DNA of 64,000 bases from Piedraia hortae CBS 480.64 (lineage: Eukaryota): positions 206,217 to 270,216 of the forward strand of contig MU005963.1 in NCBI GenBank assembly GCA_010093745.1. Reading direction: 5' to 3'. Of the stretch, positions 15,191-38,344 are shown one piece after another; within the stretch, counting starts at the first letter, position 1; each line of letters begins with the position of its first letter. Position numbers and translations under genes: made by a program. The notes under the pieces were generated by a model that ran no database searches, had not been told where the DNA came from, and was given only the letters and a program-made list of their open reading frames with translations.

Positions 15191-15829
15191 TGGGAGAAAA
15201 ACAAAACCACAAACGGTTATAACTAGAGCCTGAAATGGGAATCTTGCAGGACATCCACACGCAAGCAAAATCTTTTCTTCTCTCCAAAGTCTCCAACCTT
15301 TTCGCAAATGGGGAGATTACATGCATTTATTGTGAAGGTAGGATACATCTCACAGAGTTTAATAACCCATCGCCTAGCAAAAAGGAGGGAACATGCATGC
15401 ATACAGTACATGACGAGTTGGCACGATACCGAAGAAAATAGAAATGTAAACTCGCTGCAGCTTCTTTCCTTAGGCCTCGTTAGTTTGCATACTCTCAATC
15501 AGATTTTGCCGAATCGGGGTCTTTTCCCTTTCAAGGAAGATATATTGCAAAGTGAAGCCAAGTACCTCGCCCAGATTCAAGGGGGTTGGTACGTTCAAGA
15601 TGATGTACATCCCACCTGCGTGGAACTGGATAACATGACGAGCAGAACATCTACGTACTTTCACACCAAAAAGCCCAAACCGTAACCACACAGCCACATT
15701 CACTCGAGGGTCAATCCGAACCCTTCAACCCCCAACGATACAGACGCACCCACAGAGATACAAAGCTCTCCTAAACACAAAAAAGCTAAAAAAAAAAAAA
15801 AAAAACTCATCATAATCCATACCATACCC

Positions 15830-17745
15830 CTAAAAATACCTCCTAACCGGTCGCTCCGAAGGAGTCTCCCCCCCAATACGCCTCTCAACCCCAATCCACT
15901 CCCAAACGAGTGTAACATCCCCCGTTCTACTCTCCTTAACCATTGTGCGCACATTACTATTACTTTCCACTTTCTTCCTAACCGCCTCCCAAAGCCACTC
16001 CCTCCTTCTTGGATCAAACTCTCCTCGGAGCACATCATCGCGGAGCTGCACAACCGAAATCCCCTGCCCGGCGGAGCGTTCAAGCGCCTCGAGCGCAACG
16101 CCAGCAAGTTTCCGAGCCTCGATTTCTCTCTTCCGCGAAGCGGAGAATCTGTGTCTTGCATATGCCGCGGCAGCGACAGTGGCAAGGAGACCTATAAGTC
16201 TTGGAAGATAGTGTCCAACACGCGCGCGGATTCTTTTGCGGAGGGCGCAAGTGAGGGGGATTCTGGCGAGGCTGGTGGAGCGGAGGCCGCGTTCGCCTGT
16301 CCTTCTGCCGCGGAATCAGCGTTTGAGGAGGAAGGAGAGGAAGGTGGTGGGTGCGGATGTTCGTACCGGTTCGTGCTGGTTACGACCTCTTCAGAGGTTC
16401 GGATTTCGGATAGGGCGGGGTTCCAGAGGGTTTCGAATTCTTCGCGAGACATGCCCTTTTTGCGTTGGCTGGAGAGGATGGTTTTGAGTTGGTCTTCGCT
16501 TAGTGCGCGTTCGGGGGTTTCGCCGCATTCGTAGCGTGCGGTGTGTTCGCGGAGCTCGGAGATGGCGCGGTCGGCGACGGCTTGGACGCGACGGGCTTTG
16601 GCGCCGTCGGGTTCGCAGGTTGGTGGGAGGGGGATGAGTCCGCCGAGGGAGAGGGGGTGGGGGCGTTTGACAAAGTCGGACTCGCAGTCGGTGTCGAGAT
16701 GCTCGCCGCAGAAGGCATGTGCGGGACAGGGCTCGCATTGTGGTCGGATGAATTCGGCCCAGGGCGGGATGGATACGCCGGCTAGGTCGGTGGATGGCTG
16801 TCCAACGCCACAGTAGCCCACTTGGAGCTTCTCCTGGCGCCAGAGGGTTAACAAGCCGAGAAGGAGGGCGATAAGGACGGCCAATGGTGCCGTACTCGTT
16901 CCGGACGTTGTCCTTCTCCTGCGAGGAGCGGCCTGCACGACTTCTGTGTCTGATTCCGTCTCTGCGCCGCCGTGCGGTACGGTCATGTCAAACGTTTCCC
17001 TCGTAGGCACCAGCGCGCCATCGTGTTGCTCGTGAGTCGAGCGCAGATCAGTTGTCCGTCTGCGCGCTACCACGTCGTCGCGACTCTTACGTCGCACGCT
17101 GAGGCGGCCGGTGGTACGACGGCGGCTTTCGGTGGCCGTTGGAGGCGAACCGCCGGATTGGAAGACGTTTTCGCGTGAAAAGGGGCTTTCTTCGGCCGCG
17201 GGAGTGGCAGCGGCAAGGCGGCTAGCTCGACTGGCGCGTCGTTTGGCTTCGCGTTCCATCGTTTCAGCCCCTTCGGTGGTGCGCGCATGCTTGCTGCGAG
17301 AACGACGCGGCGTCTCCGTCACTTCATCGCGATGGCGGGTCGACCGGCGCGGTTCTGCGGCCTCATAAAGCTCTGCCGTGTCCTCGCGCACACGCGTTGA
17401 TCTCCGTACCGGCTCGACGGGGGTTGCAGTGTCGCGGCTGCGTGTGACGCGTCGTAACGTGTCTGCGCCTTCTTCAGTTCGCGCACGCGTCGTCCGCCGC
17501 GGCTGTTCGTCGTCGACAGTGTCCGTCTGAGACGCAACGTCTTCGATGCCGTTGCTGGTGCGTGTGACGTGGGACTGGGCCGACCGCAGTCGACCGGCCT
17601 GGGGCGCAACGTGTTGGTTGAAGATGTCGATCAGCTGGCTCTTCTTGGCCGACGATGGATACGGCACCGAATGGGCCACCAGCACCGAGCGCAGGCGCGG
17701 CACCGTCAGCGTGTTTGGATCGAACCCGGGCTCCAGATGGTCCAT
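15830..17745 (-). CDS. SRC1: Inner nuclear membrane protein Src1/Heh1 (HeH/LEM-like N-terminus, MAN1-Src1 C-terminus); intron 16366-16305
   Basis: N-terminal FDPNTLTVPRLRSVLVAHSVPYPSSAKKSQLIDIF, a TM segment, luminal CEPCPAHAFC...PPTCEPD. Splicing a 62-nt intron joins the frame ending ...VESNSNVRTMVKESRTGDVTLVWEWIG. Confidence 0.92.
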
Positions 17746-17861
17746 GATGTAAGTTGCAAGTTTTCGAAAGAGGAAGTTGTGCAACGAAAACGTAAACAAA
17801 CGCGGGGTTGCCAAGCCGCCAATCCGCACACACACGCACAATTACAGGCCTCAAATTCAAA

Positions 17862-25930: not shown

Positions 25931-27087
<1,157 letters not shown>

Positions 27088-27805
27088 TGGTTTAATGGAA
27101 CGTACATGACTGCTCTGCTGGATGATTTCTTCTTTTTTTTTTTCGAGATTTCGTTGTTTGTAGATGGCAAGGGTATGACAGAACTATACTATGATAACCG
27201 GTTGTTCTTCTCGTGCAGTGACAACCGCCTTTAAGACTTTACTGGTACAAGGTTATGTGATTGCTCAGGTGGATGGGTTGTCTTGTTCTGGTTGGTTTTT
27301 TAGAGGCGAATGGACTGAAACGATGGGACAGGCAGAGAGGACTGCGTGAAGGGTTCCTGCAGGAGCAATCAGCTCCATCCCTTTGTCTGTCGGCCAGTTT
27401 TGGGAAGGTTGGCACTAAGCAGGGACTCTTGCATTAGCCTAGCGTTAGCGCGGCCTGTTTGGGCGCGATTATTTCGATTGACGGTCTGTCCCGCGCTCCC
27501 TTCCGCTCCCTTGCGGCGCTAGAAGGGACCCTGAATCAGTCGGAAAATCAGTCGATACAGACCAAGGGATACATTCACGCCTCCCCATGGCTCTTGTGCG
27601 AATATCGTTGTGGATTTCTCAATAAGATTTTCCTACTAGGAAGTTCGAAAGCGAGGACAGTGACAAAGAAACAAAACACGAAAAGGAGAAAACACAAAAG
27701 GAGAAAACACAAAAGAAAATGCCGCTGCATTTCATACACCCTACCCTACCCCTAAAACTCCACAGAGAGTCACCCACAAAGTATACCCCCAGTGATCCCA
27801 TAATG

Positions 27806-29602
27806 CTAATTCCCCATCTGCTTATAATCCACACTCCGCTGCCTCCTCTGCGGGACTTTATTCTGATTGACCGGCGGACGGAAATATGCCCCTCCTGCTT
27901 GCCAGTTTTGTGGCATATTCATTCCCATTCCCATTTGCATTGGCATACTTCCCATTGGCATACTGCCCATATTTCCCATATTTTGCATGTTGGGCATGTT
28001 TCGCATATTCGGCATTGGCATGTTCTGCATGTTGGGTAGGTTCATGTTCGGAACACCGTACATCATCGGATTCATCATTCCCATCATCATCATCATCGCC
28101 ATGGAATTATTCGCATCCGCGCCGGTACCATTATTGGTTGTACTCGCGGCCATCTGCTCCATCTGTCTCGCGAAGTCGGCGGGGCTGGCTGCGATTTTGA
28201 ATTGGGGGGGTTCTTGCTCTGCTGTGGTTTCTTTCGCCGTTTCCTTTGCCGTTTCCTTCGTCTTGGTTGCTTCCTTTGTCGCTGCAGCTGCTACCGACGA
28301 GGGAGTGGGACTCTTTGCCTTAATTGCAGGATTGGCTGGTTTGCGGTCGTTTTCGAGTTCGTCGTCTGCGGGGCGTTTGCGTTTGCTGCTGCTGGCTGTA
28401 CTCGGCGCTGAAGATTCAGGACTTCCTGGCTCGGGGGTTGATGTTTCTTCAGCCGATGCTGCTGCCGCTGCTGCTGCCTTCGCAGCCGCTTTTTCCGCAC
28501 GGAAAGAGTTGACTTTCTCCTGCGCTTCGAGGTCGTCGACGAGATCGTCTAGGAGTGCCTGTAGACCGCACGAGGGACATTTAAAGCCTTTGTCATAGAG
28601 AGCCATCTCGATGCAGCTGCGGCAATATGTTGTTCCGCAGCAGGTGGTCTTCGTGGCGTGTTCAAAGGCACGGTTGTCGATGGGACAGAGGAGGTTTAGT
28701 TTTTTCAGCTCTTCGGCGTTGGCGGCGGCTTCTTTGGCTTCTTCTTCGCTGGCTTTGTGTTGCTGAATGTACTTTTCCCAAGCTTTAGAGTCGGTTACGG
28801 CAATGACCCATTCGCCTTCGGCGGTGCACATGGCACCTTTGGGAAGTTTTAGAACGTCGATTTGGCCGTCTTCGCCTAGACACTCGGACTGGTCGATTTT
28901 GCGGAGCATGGACTTTGGAATGCCAGTTGTGCGCCGAATTTTTGGACGGCCATCAAAGCTCAAATCACCATTAGTAGGACAGGCTTGGATCCAATGACCC
29001 TTCTTTCCACACCGATAGCAAGTGTAACCTTTGGGAAGTGGTCGATCGGGCACAGCGACCTTGTTCATATTGCTACGTATAACAGGCTTACCCGCTTTTA
29101 AAGCCGCGTCCTGCTTCCATATTTCATCCTGTAAACCGAGTGCGGCTCTCAACTTCTCCTCATCGCTCATGCTAGTTGAGGCAAATGATGTTTGTGGTGG
29201 CGTGACTAGCTGGCCTGATGTCGCCGCCCGACTGGCCTCGACCCTATGCTGGTTCTTGGCATTGACGGGCATCTTACCAGTGACATAGCGAGCGGCCCTG
29301 CCGGCGCCTGGTCGCATAGCTGGCCGACGCTGCGCTATTACAGTACTGGCACGCATAATCTGTGTAGTGTCATCGTCATAAACTGGCAGTGTTAGCACTC
29401 AAAGCGACGGTCATAAGGGGAATGACTTACGTGTCCCATCGTCGGGGTTGCGAATCTCTAGATCAAAGTCGGTCCCGTCGCCGAGGCGCGAGATTGCAAT
29501 TATTTGTCGCTTCACCTCAAATACAGACAGTGTACTCCCGTCAAAGGTGATGGCAAGCGGCTCCTTTTGGGACTTGAAACGGAAGAAGATGCACGAAGAC
29601 AT
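27806..29602 (-). CDS. MPE1: Cleavage/polyadenylation factor Mpe1 (RBBP6-like: DWNN, zinc knuckle, RING-like); intron 29430-29383
   Basis: MSSCIFFRFKSQKEP (DWNN), GYTCYRCGKKGHWIQACPTN knuckle, RTTGIPKS, and CPID...TTCCGTTYC..C...CPSC. Confidence 0.92.
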
Positions 29603-30214
29603 CGCAACAGTATCTCTTTGTATTTGCAAAAGATCTAGCTGAACACAGAGGAATTTGTTCTACCGCGGACTCACGGTGATAGCTACTGTACCAGCGTTGA
29701 ACGACTTTGCGTGAGGACTGTGTGAGGGAAGTGGTCGAGCAAACCGGGGGCGGGAAGAACAAAAGGCTGGTCGCGGAAATGTCTCCGCGACCAATCAGAT
29801 TACTGCCGCTTTATCCGCAAGATGGTCTTGATGACTAATGTCCACGAATAGCCTTTGGCCGAGTCAACGTCAGCTGCTGATATCAAATGCTGATGACATG
29901 CAGATGCATTATCACTCTTTTTGATGACATGCACCGAGGCTGACTTCAGGTGACTTGAGATCCCTGGCTTCTGTCCGGAGTTGACGTGGGGACTTCATGC
30001 TGTGCGATATCATAGTAAGCACTCGGACAATGAGCCGTTGCAGCGTGTATGATTTCGGGATAAGAGTTCACACATTGCAGTACAGATTATTTAGCATCTT
30101 AGTGAGTAACTATGTACAATTTTCACACTTTAGGCAGGCGCATTTACCTTGGTAACCACAACTTCCAGCAGCCTCTTGACAACCCACCTTCCAATCATCA
30201 TTAACGATCCAAGG

Positions 30215-33131
30215 ATGGTCAGCATCAATAGCGAGCATAAGCATCCAGCCTCCGCCGAAGCTAGCAATGCTCGCAACTTAATCAAAAAAGGGTCACGCTT
30301 CTTCTTACGCCGTTCAAAATCAGAAACACAGATTGTTCCTACACCCAATACAAGACTTTCTTCGTCATCTGAAGGGAATCCTCGATCTCCACGTCGTGTT
30401 CTGTTGCTGAAACGTCGTGCCTCAAGGCTGCTATTCCGAGTTCCTTTTTCGAGATGTAAGTGATGCATTGCGTCTTGTTTGGAAACTAAATGTTATAGTC
30501 AAAAAGACGATGCCGGGCTCTGAGGGCGAGTCTTCTACAACGTTACAAAACTCGAGTACTGCAGAATCGAGAAATCAAGACAACACAGTGGCCGAGTCCA
30601 TACAGACGATTCAGCTTGTTGAAAATGATCCAGGGCGGTTTGATGGCGGGAAAAGTGCTGGAACGGGTACTGGTACTGGTACTGGCACTGGCAAATCTGG
30701 CGCAGAACAACCGTCAACATATCTTGTTCGTTCCAGCGTTGCCCATGATGTCAATACTGTTGTTCAGCGGAACAAAAAAGGAGGTCGAGTCGGGATTCCC
30801 TTGGTCGGAAACAGCATCGACAATGTGTTGACTTCACAGAACGTGGACAGCGGTCCCGAGCAAAGCACCGTCTATTCTTCTCCGAATTCTGGCAACAATG
30901 CCTCATCACCTCCTGGTACCCTATCAACAGCAGCAACCTCCCTGACATCCTCCGGTGGGAAACGTGCAGGAGCAGACGAGAAGCGGGTGACGCCACCGGA
31001 AGAAAACCACGATATTTTGACGCCAATTACGGAATTTGAAGGCAAGTACTTTGTGATTCCCGTCCAGGAACCTTTGTCGTATCCCAAACCTTCCATTACC
31101 ACCGTCGAGAGAGCGGCAGCAGCGAAGATTTCTATGGAAACCCACTATTATGAGCTCCTTGCCCCTGTGTCTCATCGAGAAAGGCGACGACAGCAACTTG
31201 AGCATTACATTCGTCAAGCTAGGCTCTCGAAGAAGGAAGTCCTTCAAACCCGGTTCAACTGGTTGCGGGCGGAAAGGGATTATCTTCGTCAATGTCGTGC
31301 ACTCAAGACCAACAGCTCACTCCGACACAACTCCAAAGGCATAAATCTTGCAGGATACCGAAACATGCGGGTGCTCGGAAAGGGCAGCTTTGGCGTTGTC
31401 AGGCTCGTGGCAGAACAACCACATGGCCTCCTCAGCGATGCCTGTCGTCAAACGAACAACGTAAAAGGCAGCAAGGCCGCTGGATTCACAAACCTGGACG
31501 GTACAGCTCAGCAAAATCTCCCCCAGGGCGGCAAAGTGCTACATGATGTCTTTGCCATGAAGGTAATTCGCAAGTCTCAAATGTTGCGGTCCTGTCAAGA
31601 AGGACATTTGCGAGCAGAGAGAGACTTTTTGATTTCTGCAGAGGGCTCTCGCTGGGTGGTGCCTCTAGTGGCCAGTTTCCAGGATAGTGCCAACCTCTAT
31701 CTCATAATGGAATACATGATTGGTGGGGACTTTTTGGGTCTACTGTTCCGAGAAGATGTTTTGGACGAGGAGGTAGCAAGGTACTATGTTGCGGAAATGA
31801 TACTGTGCATTGAAGAGGCACACAAGATGAACTGGATTCATCGAGATGTGAAACCGGACAACTTTCTTATCAGTGCATCAGGACACTTGAAGATTTCAGA
31901 TTTCGGCTTGGCTTTTGACGGCCACTGGGCTCATTGCCAGTCTTACTATTCGGGACAGCGATACAGTCTGCTTGAGAAACTTGGCATCCGCATCACAGGC
32001 GATGAGCAAGACGCCAAGGAGGAGAGGGATCCTAAGACCAAGGTAGAGCTCCGACCAGCACGAGCAGACTACGACGAGGCAGCCATGCCAGATGGTTTAT
32101 TGGAATATCGAAATCGCACCGAACGACGCAAACTTGCCCGCAGCGCCGTGGGTACGAGCCAGTACATGGCACCGGAGGTGATTCAAAGCGAGTTGTACGA
32201 CGGCCGATGTGACTAGTGGAGCATCGGAATCATCTTATACGAGTGTTTGTACGGTCGCACACCTTTTTACCGTGAAACAAGGCATCTGACGAAGCAATGC
32301 ATCGTGGACCATGTCAATACGCTGAACTTTCCCAAAATTGAGCGCTGGTCAAGGCCAACCTCGGAGAAGCGTCGTGCATTGGCTCCTCCCAGCGCGACGG
32401 TCATTGACTTGCTGTGCAAGCTCCTCACCCATAAAGAAGCCCGACTCAGCTCTGCACAGTATCGCCAAGGCGAAGGCAGATGCGTGTTCCCCAATGATGC
32501 AGAGGATATCAAAGCACACCCCTTCTTCCATGACGTGCCGTGGACCCAACTGCATGTTAGCAAACCCCCCTTTGTCCCTCGGGTTCGCCGCAACCAATCC
32601 ATTGCAAAATACTTTGACGATGAAAAAGATATTTTGAGAACCAGCGGTTCAACGATGCTCAGCATCCTCGAAATTGACGATGCCGTTGACTTGGAGCATG
32701 CCAAGGAGCTTTTGGGAGCAAATTACTCTGAATGGCGACGCACCCGTCTCGAAGCAGAGAAACGGGAACTGGGAATGGAGTGCTGCTGCGATGACGAACT
32801 GCAGCGAATCAAAGACCACCTGGGTCCTCTTAACTACGCAAAATGGAAAGCCGAACGCATACTTCAGGTACAAGAGGACATGGTAGATTGGGGAATGGTT
32901 CCTCCTCAGACTGTGGCTGCATCTGCAGCTACGGCGAAACTGCAGCAGGAAAAAAAACCCAGGCCGAGGGATAAGTTGCTCAGAGACCCCATCGTGGGTC
33001 GACAGGTGATGGAAATTCGAAAAAAGGTGGCGTTCTATGGGTATACGTACCGGAGACCTAAAATGGTGACTTCTCTGGAGGGCGGGAAGAAGAAGAGATC
33101 CATTCGACCTGTCATGTCGGAGGTTTTTTGA
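30215..33131 (+). CDS. AGC/NDR-like (Cbk1/Cot1-related, PUK1/stk-21-like) Ser/Thr kinase with one in-frame TAG at 32214-32216; exons 30215-30455 and 30499-33131
   Basis: LGKGSFGVV, FAMKVIRK, HLRAERDFL, IHRDVKPDN, ISDFGL, SAVGTSQYMAPE, then GRCD*WSIGIILYECLYGRTPF and C-terminal FYGYTY. The ORFs on both sides of the TAG share a frame. A 43-nt intron at 30456-30498 restores frame with the first exon. Confidence 0.88.
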
Positions 33132-33248
33132 TTTGGACGAACCTGTGGTACCCATGCATTTACATACCTAGAATATACACCACAGGGAGGAACCATTCAT
33201 CATTCACATCATCAAACACTCACATCACGTCTTGGCATATACACCACT

Positions 33249-34938
33249 CTACAAATCATCCTCATCCTCAACCCTCCTAACCACCAACCCCTCCCCCTCC
33301 AAATACCTCTTCACATCCCCCACCGTGTACTCCCCCCTATGGAAAATCCCCGCCCCCAGCGCAGCATCCACACCCGTTCTGTCAAAAACCTCTTTAAAAT
33401 GCTCCGGTCTCCCCGCACCACTACTCGCTATTACCGGAATCCTTACCCTCCCCTTCACCAACCGCAGCAACTCAAGATCAAACCCCTCATTCGTCCCATC
33501 ACGATCAATACAATTCAACAAAATCTCCCCCGCACCCATCGCCTCAACCGCCTCCGCAAGCTGCACGACATCCAAATCCCTCGTCTCCCTCCCGCCCTTC
33601 GCCGTACACGCGAACCACACGAACCCCTCCCCGTTCGGCCCTTTTTTTTCCGAAGGGATCACAAAATGCTCTGTCTCATCAGGCGAAGCGACCCACACCC
33701 TCTTAGGATCGATCGACACAACAACAGCCTGCGCGCCGTACGCACTACTTATCATTTCAATCGCCGTCTTTCCACTCAACCTTCCCCCAGCGGCATAGTA
33801 CCCCTCCGCCGCATCAACCGCATCAGAGCCAATCGAGACCTTATCCGCCCCGCTTTGGAAATACAGCTTCGCGACCTCCAACGCGGGGACGGTGCGGCTT
33901 GTTTCGGGGTCGAATGTATCCCTTATCCCGCCCCCGATTGTGAGGGGGACGAAAGTCGTTGCGGCGGTTTGACGTAGGATGGTCAGCATGGGTAGGTCAC
34001 GGAGGGGCGTCTCGCGGAAAGAGGTTATGTTTAGGAATGTGATTTCATCCGCGCCTTGGTGGTAGTATTCCTGCGCTTTTGAAATGGGTTTGCCAAGGTT
34101 GCGAATTGAGGCTGTGGGGTTTTTCTCCCGGACGTCGTATTGGTCCCCTTTTGTGACGACAAGGTCGCCGGAGTCGTTGGTGCGTACGTCGAGACAGGCG
34201 ATTATGCGGTTTGTTAAGCCCCGAGGGACGAATTGGGGGTTGGGGGGGTTGGAGGGGTTGGGGGTTCCGGAGAGGAAGGATTTGAGGACCCGCAGGCCGG
34301 CCACGCCGCTTTTTTCGGGATGGAATTGCGTTGCCAGGATGTTGGACTTTGAGATCGCGCCGATGAAGGTCTCCGTGCCGTAGGTTGCGGTTGCGATGCC
34401 CCAGCCTTGGGATTCGAGGGTCCCCGGGTGGTATGGGGCGAAGTAGGAGTGGACGTAGTAGTACTTCGAGGAGGGGCGGAGACCGTACAGCGGAGTGGAA
34501 CTCGTGGCTGAGTTCCAGCCGATGTGGGGGACACTTTTGTCCGTGTTGGTGAAGTGTTGGAGGGTTCCCTTTACGAGGCCTAGGCCGGGGACGGAGGGAT
34601 CCTCCGTTGAGCCTTCGAAGAGGGCTTGGAGACCCACGCAGATGCCCATAAAGGGTTTTCCCGAGGTGATGTGAGCTTTGACTGGTTCGACATAGCCGGC
34701 TTGGGTGAATTGGCTGAGACAGTGGCCGAAGTGGCCTACGCCGGGGAGGATGAGTTTCTGATTTTTTACGTTAGGTGTGAATGTTGGGGGGGGGGTGGGG
34801 TTTTGGATGATGTACTTCAGCTTTGGGGACGTCTTTGGGTGATTTGATCCATTCAACTTCCCATCCGAGTTTTTCGATTGCATTGACGAGAGATCGAATA
34901 TTCCCTGCTGCATAGTCGAGCAGGTGGACTGTAGGCAT
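33249..34938 (-). CDS. HIS7: Imidazole glycerol phosphate synthase HisHF; intron 34815-34758
   Basis: [62 protein letters not shown]...[12 protein letters not shown]. Confidence 0.97.
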
Positions 34939-35031
34939 ATCGGGTGGAATGTTTTCAGAAGTTTGATTTGCCTTTTGCGGACCTGGCTCGTCTGGCCAAT
35001 CAGATGCTTGCGATATAGCGGACGCTAGCGG

Positions 35032-35046
35032 GTGATGAGTCATCAC
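35032..35046. promoter_or_regulatory. Gcn4/CpcA (cross-pathway control) site upstream of HIS7
   Basis: Optimal ATGAGTCAT at 35035-35043 within the pseudo-palindrome GTGATGAGTCATCAC, ~100 bp upstream of the HIS7 ATG. Confidence 0.75.
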
Positions 35047-35093
35047 TAAACCTCACGGGGACGAAAAAATGTTGGGGGTCGACAGCGGAGACA

Positions 35094-35703
35094 ATGGGCC
35101 GCAAGCTAAAGTACCACGAGCAAAAGCTCCTGCGAAAAGTCGATTTTGTTAATTATCCGCGCGATGCTCAACACCGCTCGGCCGAAGTTATTCGTCGTTA
35201 CTCAGTTACCAACGCGGCGGATTACCAGTCCTACAACCGCATCGCTGGAAGTCTGCGCCAATTAGCCCATAAACTGACGCAGTTGCCGCCGGAATCTGAA
35301 TTTAGAAGGAAACATGAAGACCTGCTGCTGGAAAAATTGTTTGATATGGGGCTCTTGAAGACGGGAGGAGGCGGGAAGGGCAAACTAAGCGATGTTGAGC
35401 GTATCAGTGTTTCGGCGTTCTGTAGAAGGAGGTTGGGGGTCGTTATGACAAGACTGAGAATGGCAGAGACTGTCAGTGCGGCGAATAAGTTCATTGAGCA
35501 AGGACATGTCAGAGTCGGGACCGAGGTGGTTACTGATTCGGCGTTTTTGGTGACGAGGTAGGTGGATTTGTGTGTAGTGGATGGTGTTATGCTGACTGGT
35601 GAACAGGAACATGGAAGACTTTGTGACTTGGGTCGACTCATCCAAGATTAAGCGCACCATCATGAAGTATCGCGACAAGCTGGATGATTTTGATCTGCTA
35701 TGA
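35094..35703 (+). CDS. IMP3: U3 snoRNP protein Imp3; intron 35558-35606
   Basis: [18 protein letters not shown]...SAFCRRRL...[10 protein letters not shown]...[33 protein letters not shown]. Confidence 0.97.
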
Positions 35704-35796
35704 GTCGCTTTACAATTAATACATAGAGACGATATGCCCTTAGACGAGCCGCGAGACAGCCGTGCTGCATGGCTGCCCCGAGGCATGTACGATACA

Positions 35797-36399
35797 CTAA
35801 CCACATCTACCATCTTTCCACCCAGTTCTCCACCTTTCTTCCCACAGATTGCAATCAAAAACTTTTTTGCCCAATTTTACATTGACAGCGTTGTGCGCAT
35901 CACACAGCCACTTGCCAAACTCCTCCCGATTACTAACCTTGGGCTCATTTCCCTCCTTCATCCACGCTCTAAAGTCATCGGCACACACCCAGCAAGGGTA
36001 TAGTCGACTAAAGCTGCTCATGAACTGCTTTGCGTCTGACTGCTGCTCGGGAGTTGCATCAGTTGGGTAATTCGCGGCCAGGGAATGGAGGAGCGTCCAG
36101 GTTGCGCGACCCAGTTCTTCAACATCTGCAGGGCAATCTTGGGGCGGTTGAAGAGTAGCAGCAGTCGACATGGGCGCCTTACTGCTACTCGTTTGACGTT
36201 TAGTCATGGCAGCCCAAGAAGCAAAGGAGGTACACGAACGACAGCTGCGACTATCTCAGTACATAAACCCCTCCCATCGACCATGTCCCACGTACGGCTT
36301 CCCATCCGGGCCCAACACAACGCCTTTGGGCAGCTGCTTAGGTTGTTTATCCTCTTCCTCTTTCCTTGTGGACGCCGCTTCTGGTATATCTGAATGCAT
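35797..36399 (-). CDS. ERV1: Mitochondrial FAD-linked sulfhydryl oxidase Erv1; intron 36295-36245
   Basis: VLGPDGKP/CRSC shuttle motif, CPADVEELGRATWTLLH, YPCWVCA, WLCDAHNAVNVKLGK, ERWRTGW. Confidence 0.95.
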
Positions 36400-36696
36400 A
36401 TTTACGGCACAAAAGAATTGCTGAAGGATTGGATACTCGAAGGAATCAACCGTCATGCCTTCGATGCGGTCGATTGAAAGATGAAGTCCATTTGACCTTA
36501 GGGTTAGGACATGCACCTGTCACCAGCTTCCGGCATTCAGCCGACACAAGTGGCATGGCCTTGCATGAGTCAGCAGGGTCCACTCCAGGCTATCATATTT
36601 GATAAAAGGTCGGTGAAAGTGGGTGTCAAGGGAGTTCAAACAAGGAGAGCCTGACTCTTTGTCCAACGCTCTTTTTCTATTTCAGTACTGGCCATC

Positions 36697-37824
36697 ATGC
36701 CTGCAATGTCACTGCTCTCCATGCTCACCCGGACTGCTGTCCGTCGAGTCGACGATATAATGGATCTGGGACAGATGCCTGAACATCTTGCGAGACCGAT
36801 TTTGGATGCCGTCAAGAATCCAGCTCAACTCAAATCAATCGAGAACAAATCACCACACCTTCAAGCTGGAAACTCTGATTTGTGGAGAGCATTCATCAAG
36901 AAAGATATTCCCAACTGGTCTCAAAAGCTGAGTAAAGAAGGCACTCCTCTGCACGCCAAAGGCTGGCGAAAATTGTATTACAAGTGGAAAAAAGAAGCTG
37001 AAGAGGCCCAAAAAGCTGCCAAAGATGCTCTGGTCAAGACTCTCAAGGGTATTCAAGAAGAAAAGGAGGCGAATAAGACCAAAATAGTCCCCCGGATCAT
37101 CACCAACCCAAAGAGAAAGAAGCGGTCGACACCCGCATATATAATGAGGCCGCCACCGAGAAGTGTACAAATCAAAAATGTACCAAGCTGGGTTATTGCC
37201 GACGTCGACAGAGCGGAAAAGGTAAGGGCGGCAGAAGACAAGGCTTGGGAGGAGATGAAGAGGAGAAAGGCCGAGGCGGCGCAGTCTATTTCTGCCGCTC
37301 AAACTGCCATACCTCCGAGAGCTGTGCCTACCCAAAGAACCACACAGACATCCTCTAGAGCATCGGCAGCTCAGCCTGCTGGGCCACCGAGAGAAGTTGC
37401 TGGAAGCACTTCTAATACCCCTTCTCAGTCAACCGCTAAGCGAAAGCCGCCGACTGATGTGGACACCCCAGTTGACAAACAGCCTGTTAAATCTCCAAAG
37501 CGAAAGCAGCCGGCTGAGAGAAATGTTCTGACCCCTAAGACCAGGCATGCTGAACGGCCTAGCCAGACTGTTCAACCTCCAGAAGGGGTCCGGCCAACGA
37601 CAAGTCGCATTCTTACCCCCAAGCGCAGACGCACATCTCAGCCGTCTCCTGTCTCGCCAGCGTCCAGTCCAAAAGCACCTGCAACAACCTCTAACAACGG
37701 ATTATCCTCCGTGCCCAGATCTGTACCAGCAGCACCGAGCCTCGCTGAACCAAAGCCCAAGGCTATACTACGGAAGAGACCCCCACCCTCGGTCTTCATG
37801 CCATCTAAAAAAGCAAAGCATTAA
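36697..37824 (+). CDS. Elongin A-like protein (RNA polymerase II transcription factor SIII subunit A)
   Basis: N-terminal SLLSM...DLGQMPEHLARPILDAVKNPAQLKSIENKSPHL...LWRAFIKKD...WRKLY, then a basic low-complexity tail. Confidence 0.8.
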   Translation: MPAMSLLSMLTRTAVRRVDDIMDLGQMPEHLARPILDAVKNPAQLKSIENKSPHLQAGNSDLWRAFIKKDIPNWSQKLSKEGTPLHAKGWRKLYYKWKKEAEEAQKAAKDALVKTLKGIQEEKEANKTKIVPRIITNPKRKKRSTPAYIMRPPPRSVQIKNVPSWVIADVDRAEKVRAAEDKAWEEMKRRKAEAAQSISAAQTAIPPRAVPTQRTTQTSSRASAAQPAGPPREVAGSTSNTPSQSTAKRKPPTDVDTPVDKQPVKSPKRKQPAERNVLTPKTRHAERPSQTVQPPEGVRPTTSRILTPKRRRTSQPSPVSPASSPKAPATTSNNGLSSVPRSVPAAPSLAEPKPKAILRKRPPPSVFMPSKKAKH

Positions 37825-37895
37825 CAGGATGATGTGCTATGTATTAACAATTGTAACTGGCTATATGTTCATAACGTTCATGTACTGTACATAGG

Positions 37896-38344
37896 CTACG
37901 ATGTCTCGCGAAGGGCCTTCAACGCACCAGCAATTGCTTCCTTGGCTTTTGTAATTTCCTCAGGTGAGCTTTGGTCACCGGGGCCTTTGTCGTCCTCCTA
38001 GCTTGAAGTCAGCAAACGCTCAAAGATACCTATAGAAGAGCATACAAGCTGAGTCTCGAGCTTGGAAAGAGCTTCCTGGATCTTTTGTTTCATTTGCGGG
38101 AACAAGGCCTGTGTCTCTTCAAGCGCCTTGCGCTGTTGCAGTGTTAATAATCCACAGCTACGAAAGTCGAAATGAATACCTCCTGCTTCAGCAAGTATTC
38201 CGCATTTTCATCATCGCTGCCGCCTTTCTCCATCTTAGCAAGACGGGCTTTTTGGGCTTCGCATTCTTTATGGTAGCTAGCCTCTTCCTTGACCAAACGG
38301 TTCAAGGAAGAAGTTGCAATTGAAAGCTGGGACGGTGGGGCCAT
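37896..38344 (-). CDS. RBL2: Tubulin-binding cofactor A; introns 38179-38133 and 38045-37998
   Basis: MAPPSQLSIATSSLNRLVKEEASYHKE...ENAEYLLKQE/RKALEETQALFP...L/EDDKG...EEITKAKEAI. Confidence 0.92.

Follow-up and report, generated by a model that had tools for sequence, protein, structure and literature searches.

An in-frame TAG at the edited tryptophan codon of the PUK1/stk-21 kinase in a Dothideomycete, a candidate case of restorative mRNA editing outside Sordariomycetes

The genome of Piedraia hortae CBS 480.64 contains, in the 64,000-nucleotide stretch of contig MU005963.1 analyzed here (the window), a gene for an NDR-like protein kinase that is interrupted by a single in-frame TAG at a tryptophan codon of the catalytic domain, and the question is whether this gene is dead, misread or repaired. 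In Fusarium graminearum, the PUK1 kinase gene carries tandem UAG UAG codons in the kinase domain that become UGG UGG in perithecia, and in Neurospora crassa, NCU03242/stk-21 reads UAG UGG, with the stop at the first of the two positions, and is also edited in perithecia (both as described in Liu 2016). The P. hortae TAG occupies the codon at which the N. crassa stop is found and, given that both the gene and the codon are those of a published edited site, this gene is probably a restorative-editing gene of the premature stop codon (PSC) type in a new class of fungi, with editing of the TAG itself argued by analogy. The gene and the mechanism are known in Sordariomycetes; what genomic comparison appears to add is the TAG in a Dothideomycete ortholog, the occurrence of TAG at three columns of the family, several apparent origins of these stops, and signs of selection acting across a stop.

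The stop is read directly from the plus strand as GAC TAG TGG AGC (32211-32222), which gives D-stop-W-S in place of D-W-W-S in subdomain IX; the A at 32215 is preceded by T at -1 and followed by G at +1, T at +2 and G at +3. The coding sequence, 30215-30455 joined to 30499-33131, comprises 2874 nucleotides (957 codons and the terminal TGA) and is fixed by a spliced joint in an RNA contig. Codon 653 is its sole internal stop and there is no frameshift: the stop-to-stop frames 30411-32216 (601 amino acids) and 32217-33131 (304 amino acids) are one frame parted by the TAG alone, and the 304 codons located 3' of the TAG run through YGRTPF, HPFF, PPFVP and FYGYTY. Two public runs were compared with the part of the window from 26000 to 38000, namely, a DNA assembly (X1), which may be the source of the window itself, and RNA contigs from a separate study of the same organism (X2), identified as RNA by seven short GT..AG or CT..AC joints and by poly(A) ends. 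The X1 contig spans the entire compared part and shows no difference from the window at 32215. One X2 contig is spliced at 30456-30498 and then continues unbroken from 30499 to 34757 with no letter different from the window, which is evidence that a spliced kinase transcript exists; the mRNA consensus carries the UAG and shows no splicing around codon 653. Because the DNA contig and the spliced RNA contig from the second study both read TAG, the stop is not an assembly error. The initial annotation, made from the letters of the window alone, had described D-stop-W-S as the only lesion in a 957-codon gene for an NDR-like kinase, with 304 further open codons through to FYGYTY; all of this stands, the gene model is now backed by RNA, and the A at 32215 is present in both the DNA and the RNA contigs.

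The product matches the Pfam kinase domain (Table 1) and has the full catalytic motif set, GKGSFG, AMKV, HRDVKPDN, DFG, YMAPE, D-stop-W-S, HPFF and FYGYTY. A long insert separates DFG from APE; this insert and the C-terminal tail are presumably of the NDR type, and the FYGYTY element is kept as AF.GY.Y.R in Sordariomycete and Pleosporales orthologs. When residues 330-906 were used as the query, the best 120 homologs considered were, where named, nearly all from Dothideomycetes, with the top matches, at 59-62% identity, coming from Teratosphaeriaceae, Friedmanniomyces, Elasticomyces, Cercospora and Recurvomyces. The Sordariomycete and Leotiomycete members of the family, including the N. crassa protein P0248, were reached from a Xylariales-like locus and a Podospora protein used as seeds. 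Phylogenetic trees built with FastTree (196 rows) and IQ-TREE (73 rows), with the outgroup paralogs Cbk1 and Dbf2 left out, both track fungal classes: Sordariomycetes form a group (support 99, starred) that adjoins Leotiomycetes, Eurotiomycete, Lecanoromycete and Candelariomycete rows join these two classes in a starred set, and Dothideomycetes split into two groups. The window gene falls among Dothideomycetidae, in a 19-row set (100, starred, in IQ-TREE), as the sister to rows from Mycosphaerellales, Cladosporiales and Capnodiales (96, starred, in FastTree; 93 in IQ-TREE), whereas P0248 belongs within Sordariales. Given that the tree follows the fungal classes, the family is best regarded as a single orthogroup, and by its sequence the window gene belongs to this orthogroup, that of PUK1/stk-21. 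No record labelled NCU03242 or FGSG_01058/FGRRES_01058 was found among the homolog-search matches, so that the link to PUK1/stk-21 rests on the gene tree, the scars in gene models described below and the published description of the family; P0248 is presumably NCU03242 (stk-21). The assignment of the kinase to the PUK1/stk-21 type in the initial annotation is thus borne out by the domain match and by the trees that include P0248, and its tentative placement of the organism outside Sordariomycetes proves correct, both by the homologs and by the two trees.

The state of the first tryptophan of D-W-W-S (hereinafter site 1) across the family puts the TAG into context. Among the 277 family protein models that were compared at this motif, D-W-W-S is found in 172, and in 96 the matched motif is absent, mostly in Sordariomycete models that are gapped there. 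The gapped models, many from Xylariales, Sordariales and Hypocreales plus four from Dothideomycetes, often restart right behind the first or the second tryptophan codon (YMAPE/WSVG or YMAPE/SLG), and the model of the N. crassa protein P0248 jumps from YDAR to HMTKQN. According to Liu 2016, automated annotation places such stops into a false intron, which was shown to be an artefact in PUK1. The scar YMAPE/WSIG in three Pleosporales models (Lentithecium P0108, Neocucurbitaria P0115 and Paraphaeosphaeria P0119) matches that of the Sordariomycetes with TAG TGG. Among the best 120 homologs, tryptophan at site 1 is found in 105 by a tight motif, a looser motif that accepts S-I-A recovers D-W-W-S in 8 of the remaining 12, and four models skip the stretch.

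Metagenome contigs were scanned with the pattern Y-D-[GA]-R-C-D, TRG TRG, S-x-G, which yielded at least 113 loci, with flanks obtained for 80; several of these loci are partial, so that denominators vary by site. Among the 113 loci listed, 93 read TGG TGG, 18 read TAG TGG, 2 read TAG TAG and none reads TGG TAG, which puts TAG at site 1 in 20 loci, 13 of these in Sordariomycetes and 7 outside. One of the seven (L002) is sister to Lentithecium (Pleosporales), another (L110) is sister to Neodothiora, four (L040, L001, L089 and L094) form a separate clade outside both Sordariomycetes and Dothideomycetes, and the seventh (L113) is too short for the tree but has its best matches in Pleosporales. Thus, 7 of the 142 non-Sordariomycete tree rows of known state carry TAG (six loci and the window), and at least four origins are needed to account for them. 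The closest relative of the window at the DNA level among the 113 loci listed is L017, at 70% identity, a distance at which dS would be saturated. Because TAG recurs at this codon in relatives, the presence of a stop at exactly this position does not look like chance.

Some members of the family have other residues at site 1, namely, leucine (D-L-W-S) in P0012 and P0100 and tyrosine (D-Y-W-S) in P0059 and seven Sordariales models, each encoded one step from TAG. In seven loci (L006, L020, L033, L038, L084, L101 and L106), the open stretches around the motif are about 25 amino acids long, which might reflect many short introns or decay; these were too short for inclusion in the tree.

In-frame stops in this family are not limited to site 1. 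A strict scan, in which 172 complete models were compared with all loci by tblastn and a stop was accepted when each of its two flanks comprised 8 ungapped columns, at least 4 of them identical, identified 41 locus-positions, of which 38 are TAG, 2 are TGA and 1 is TAA. The two TGA rows come from duplicate loci, depend on one reference, lie far in the N-terminal part and probably precede the start. Outside Sordariomycetes, the TAGs other than those at site 1 are found mostly on two aromatic or tryptophan columns, sites 2 and 3, with one further TAG (L083) at a glutamine column that is seen with two references only. The sole clearly non-TAG stop in the strict scan is a TAA at a glutamate column (L071:1105; the near-identical model P0118 has glutamate), which may reflect either a nonsense variant or a faulty metagenome contig. 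Sordariomycete loci contain extra TAGs as well, HR-stop-SL (L010, L011, L021, L087 and L061), HR-stop-F (L019) and IP-stop-E (L061), at tyrosine, phenylalanine/tryptophan and tryptophan columns, beyond the two published PUK1 sites.

Site 2 (VA[KR]-W-Y[IV]AEM) lies just before the catalytic loop and is TAG in four loci that are Dothideomycete-like or belong to the separate clade of L001 (L029:2566, L054:3467, L050:2319 and L001:701; here and below, positions are those of the first codon base on the plus strand of the locus). In the 63 loci and the window, the codons at this site are TGG (39), TTC (12), TTT (8), TAG (4) and TAC (1), and among the 277 models, tryptophan (128) and phenylalanine (121) prevail, tyrosine being present in the window gene alone. 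The TAC of the window is one step from TAG but two steps from TGG, which points to a TAG that once stood here and was hard-wired to a sense codon. The site-2 stretch is skipped in the models of Baudoinia, Teratosphaeria nubilosa, Polychaeton, Cryoendolithus, Zasmidium (two models), Dothistroma and Zymoseptoria, and in those of Zasmidium (both models), Dothistroma and Zymoseptoria, the HRD catalytic loop itself is deleted. Because removal of the HRD loop is not credible for a conserved kinase, we infer that the stretches skipped in these Mycosphaerellales and Capnodiales models conceal further TAGs. Site 3, the tryptophan of the W...E...LRQ element in the N-terminal extension, is TAG in four loci (L009:3289, L030:3977, L043:3445 and L060:3977) that share 88-99% identity with named proteins and are Pyrenophora-like or Alternaria-like. 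A looser scan and inspection by eye show TAG at this site in L002 and L040 as well. Many Pleosporales models of about 590 amino acids may begin 3' of the site-3 stop. Thus, gene models in this family often excise conserved kinase segments, some of them the catalytic loop, and TAG in place of a tryptophan codon would explain this fault.

If these stops marked dead genes, the sequences around them would not be expected to be constrained. The ratio of non-synonymous to synonymous substitution rates (dN/dS) was estimated by the Nei-Gojobori method for the pairs formed by L009 with three Alternaria-like loci, all with TAG at site 3. The ratio is 0.14-0.19 for the roughly 330 codons that precede the TAG, 0.03-0.07 for the kinase part and 0.12 for the tail (one pair with unsaturated dS), with dS for these pairs ranging from 0.7 to more than 1.4. 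Purifying selection thus acts within one frame on either side of the conserved site-3 TAG in these Pleosporaceae-like loci, and the low dN/dS on both sides makes it unlikely that these loci are pseudogenes. This is the pattern expected of a recoded stop, although two separately translated products may be the alternative. The window gene itself is judged by identity and by conserved columns. The ratio of the window-to-relatives identity to the pairwise identity among the relatives is 0.95 upstream and 0.91 downstream of the TAG, so that the part after the stop shows no extra divergence. Of the invariant columns, the window gene keeps 90 of 95 before the TAG and, beyond it, 43 of 46 within the kinase portion and 26 of 28 within the tail. 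A decaying pseudogene was considered for the window gene and rejected, given the single stop, the lack of frameshifts and the equal preservation of invariant columns after the stop. The intact downstream frame of the window gene fits continued selection, as it would a very young mutation.

The surroundings of the TAG meet the published preferences of fungal editing, at least formally. In F. graminearum, U is present at -1 in 85.7% of the edited sites, A or G is preferred at +1, and 62% of the sites are in hairpin loops (Liu 2016). In the window, CCGATG (32204-32209) and CATCGG (32222-32227) are exact reverse complements of each other, the loop UAGU is closed by an inner pair, C32213:G32218, and A32215 lies in this predicted hairpin loop, with U at -1 and G at +1. 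The neighboring letters, the six-pair stem and the loop are as given in the initial annotation, but they carry no weight beyond the codons themselves: any TAG codon brings U at -1 and G at +1, and the loop is set by the codons around it. The fold of the 61 nucleotides around the site is ordinary for its composition (z = -0.99; 35 of 200 shuffled sequences fold as well). In 82 sequences of the family, pairing of the stem is seen in 81.9% of the cells, compared with 29-59% when partner columns are slid, but column shuffles reach the same 81.9% in 500 of 500 trials, there are no compensatory pairs, and the stem is also present in relatives with TGG. The hairpin was accordingly rejected as independent support. 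Among unique 61-mers, the candidate base is predicted to be in a hairpin loop in 13 of 19 TAG loci compared with 26 of 62 others, and the mean minimum free energy is -16.8 for TAG loci and -13.2 for the others, both comparisons being confounded by relatedness. At most, the stem explains the tolerance of this codon for TAGs arising wherever there is editing activity. As for sites 2 and 3, the UAG is in a small predicted loop in 5 of the 8 loci folded; in the Alternaria-like loci, the site-3 UAG is predicted to lie in a 6-nucleotide loop on a stem of 6-7 base pairs.

The published systems provide the closest points of comparison. The window gene and stk-21, linked through P0248, belong to one orthogroup and share the codon state UAG UGG at D-W-W-S, in agreement with the initial annotation, which had placed the TAG at the position edited in PUK1/stk-21. 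The tail RPRD..LLRD...AF.GY.Y.R is common to the window gene, the Verticillium protein P0039 and the loci L026 and L067; the tail of P0248 was left out of this comparison. The difference is that stk-21 is a Sordariomycete gene edited in perithecia, whereas the window gene comes from a Dothideomycete and is known from sequence, with an unedited RNA consensus; at site 2, phenylalanine is present in the Sordariomycete loci and models that were read and tyrosine in the window. PUK1 (FGRRES_01058, PSC03), likewise an NDR-like kinase, is interrupted by a premature stop at the subdomain IX tryptophan pair and has a false intron in automated models, but contains two tandem TAGs compared with the one in the window, and the link to it goes through the family tree and the published description. 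In PUK1, the tandem TAGs are edited at 91% and 99%, as given in a 2024 review, and Table S1 of Qi 2024 lists an editing level of up to 86% for PSC03-1; the 2020 review states that a non-editable stk-21 allele fails to complement. The codon pair varies among Sordariomycetes, with UGG UAG in Fusarium verticillioides and G at both positions in Magnaporthe oryzae and Claviceps (Liu 2016). As described in Qi 2024, PSC stops are TAG, mostly derived from TGG, arose independently at the same sites and, in some cases, were later replaced by codons one step away. The TAG of the window, its TAC at site 2 and the tyrosine and leucine of relatives at site 1 all fit this pattern; the difference is that the origins of all F. 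graminearum PSCs are placed within Sordariomycetes in the same paper, and the window gene lies outside. Qi 2024 also mentions that individual species from other classes, in which editing is undetermined, have premature stops at several of the PSC sites. The pseudothecia-forming fungi are named in the 2020 review as still to be examined for editing.

On the reading favored here, translation of the unedited mRNA would end at codon 653, and the product, cut short before the last part of the catalytic domain and the C-terminal hydrophobic motif, would be inactive as a kinase. At one specific stage, which by analogy would be sexual development, A32215 would be deaminated to inosine, the UAG would then be read as UGG, and the full-length kinase would be made. 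The enzyme, again by analogy, would be Tad2/Tad3 with a cofactor, and the kinase protein would be off in vegetative cells and on where editing is active. The recurrence of TAG in place of tryptophan at three columns in non-Sordariomycete orthologs strengthens this case beyond what the initial annotation could offer. For the broader proposition, that stage-gated adenosine-to-inosine restorative editing is at work in Dothideomycetes and, beyond them, in at least one other non-Sordariomycete clade (that of L040, L001, L089 and L094), the sequence comparisons leave the chances about even.

Several observations weigh against editing of the window TAG. The RNA consensus has A at 32215, although this is a single run that comes without stage information, and contigs drop minor variants. 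The TAG at site 1 is private to the window among its close sampled relatives: in the 21-row clade of the FastTree tree that includes the window, the other 20 rows consist of 18 with tryptophan, one with leucine (Cladosporium fusiforme P0012) and one in which the stretch is skipped (Recurvomyces P0010). The terminal branch of the window gene is long (0.52 compared with a median of 0.11 in FastTree; 0.51 compared with 0.19 in IQ-TREE), which could reflect relaxed constraint. A very young nonsense mutation would leave the same intact downstream frame; the stem around the codon is a by-product of the conserved R-C and S-I-G codons and not independent evidence; the metagenome scan is blind to TGA and TAA at site 1 and requires the flanking motif; and the title of the P0248 record says only 'kinase-like protein [Neurospora crassa]'. 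On the side of the machinery, Feng 2024 describes the Ame1-Tad3 interaction as having arisen in Sordariomycetes and the editing in Pezizomycetes as independent, and the 2024 review mentions no genome-wide editing in the cleistothecia of Aspergillus nidulans or the apothecia of Botrytis cinerea. No published report of editing in Dothideomycetes was found in the literature covered, which left out figures S4-S6 of Qi 2024 that possibly show PSC03 by class; apart from the remark on pseudothecia, the papers that touch on Dothideomycetes do so when describing how orthologs are distributed or expressed.

Several of these points are what the main rival reading, a recent null allele, would predict, that is, a G-to-A transition that kills a sexual-spore kinase in a lineage or strain that does not rely on it, with no repair and with decay still pending: the private TAG, the long branch, the unedited consensus, the silence of the literature on Dothideomycetes and the open frame downstream are all accommodated. 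Nevertheless, a null allele is rather unlikely. It is improbable that a random nonsense mutation would land on the very codon known to be edited in N. crassa and F. graminearum, TAG occupies this codon in at least three other non-Sordariomycete lineages, and the stops of the relatives are TAG at tryptophan or aromatic columns (38 TAG against one TAA and the two weak TGA rows) and persist under purifying selection. Furthermore, the invariant columns are kept equally well on both sides of the stop in the window gene. It is quite improbable that the stop is bypassed or harmless without editing, be it through readthrough of the UAG, excision of a 39-nucleotide micro-intron (from GT at 32178 to AG at 32216) or a functional truncated product. 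The micro-intron has in its favor that gene predictors draw an intron at YMAPE/WS in relatives, that GT at 32178-32179 and AG at 32215-32216 do exist, and that its length is a multiple of 3. Against this, the RNA contig is unspliced over 32178-32216, 39 nucleotides is less than the length of any of the seven introns detected between 26000 and 38000 (43-58 nucleotides), the conserved aspartate of D-W-W-S would be removed, such introns are described as annotation artefacts in PUK1 (Liu 2016), and the counterpart introns in models at site 2 would take out the HRD catalytic loop. Readthrough gives no account of why the stops sit on tryptophan columns and are TAG. Finally, a sequencing or assembly error in a genome that truly reads TGG is hardly credible; nothing emerged in its favor, with A at 32215 present in two runs from two studies, the DNA of X1, possibly the source of the window, and the spliced RNA of X2.

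Table 1. Features of the kinase gene and of neighboring genes in the window (coordinates are those of the 64,000-nucleotide stretch)
Feature	Position	Strand	Details
In-frame TAG	32214..32216	+	Codon 653, first Trp of D-W-W-S (subdomain IX); A32215 is the candidate edited base
Exon 1, kinase gene	30215..30455	+	ATG at 30215; 3' end from the RNA-contig joint 30455/30499
Intron, 43 nucleotides, GT..AG	30456..30498	+	GTAAGT...ATAG; joint in RNA run X2, record 6, side 255
Exon 2, kinase gene	30499..33131	+	Ends at TGA 33129-33131; entire kinase domain and C-terminal tail
Protein kinase domain	31377..32528	+	Pfam PF00069, E 7.5e-46
Kinase motifs	GKGSFG 31377-31394; HRDVKPDN 31839-31862; DFG 31899-31907; YMAPE 32163-32177; HPFF 32517-32528	+	
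C-terminal FYGYTY, hydrophobic-motif-like	33033..33050	+	Lost if translation ends at codon 653
Site 2 codon TAC (Tyr), VAR-Y-YVAEM	31782..31784	+	TGG, TTY or TAG in relatives
Site 3 codon TGG (Trp), FN-W-LRAERDYLRQ	31260..31262	+	TAG in 6 non-Sordariomycete loci
Local hairpin (predicted)	32204..32227	+	Stem 32204-32210 with 32221-32227: 6 Watson-Crick pairs and U32210:G32221
HeH/LEM and MSC-domain gene (Src1/Heh1-like)	15700-17841	-	549-amino-acid frame ends at TAG 16192; then 163 open codons, non-coding-looking
Zinc-knuckle protein gene	27806-29398	-	In X2 contig 27710-34757
Imidazole glycerol phosphate synthase-like gene	33249-35024	-	In X2 contig 27710-34757

A search of the window for other genes split by TAG, in which adjacent open reading frames of at least 70 amino acids each were paired, produced 41 pairs, 11 of them split by TAG; of the four TAG-split pairs that were searched against Pfam, a match was obtained for one, the minus-strand gene at 15700-17841, which encodes HeH and the first half of the MSC domain. 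This gene was rejected as a second recoded one given that the frame after the TAG looks non-coding; the TAG is most likely intronic or at an exon end, and the remaining half of the MSC domain is probably located beyond an intron. No second TAG-split candidate was thus found among the 41 pairs listed and the four tested by Pfam. The X2 contig that covers the kinase gene (27710-34757) joins three genes on both strands. The stop codon of the kinase gene and that of its neighbor, the imidazole glycerol phosphate synthase-like gene, are 117 nucleotides apart, so that the convergent transcripts must overlap.

If editing of this kinase occurs in Dothideomycetes, mRNA editing in fungi would be older than the common ancestor of Sordariomycetes or would have several more origins than the two now proposed, and the extra origins would perhaps do without an Ame1-Tad3 contact of the Sordariomycete type. 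The TAG pattern also accounts for a recurrent annotation fault in the gene models of this kinase. A Dothideomycete with the diagnostic PUK1/stk-21 stop provides a concrete target for the question of editing in fungi that form pseudothecia or cleistothecia, and the range of targets is wider still, given that many Dothideomycete orthologs, some of them loci that closely resemble Alternaria, Pyrenophora and Didymella proteins, show the pattern of TAG at three tryptophan columns. Dothideomycetes are the largest class of fungi, and the spread of RNA editing may so far have been underestimated.

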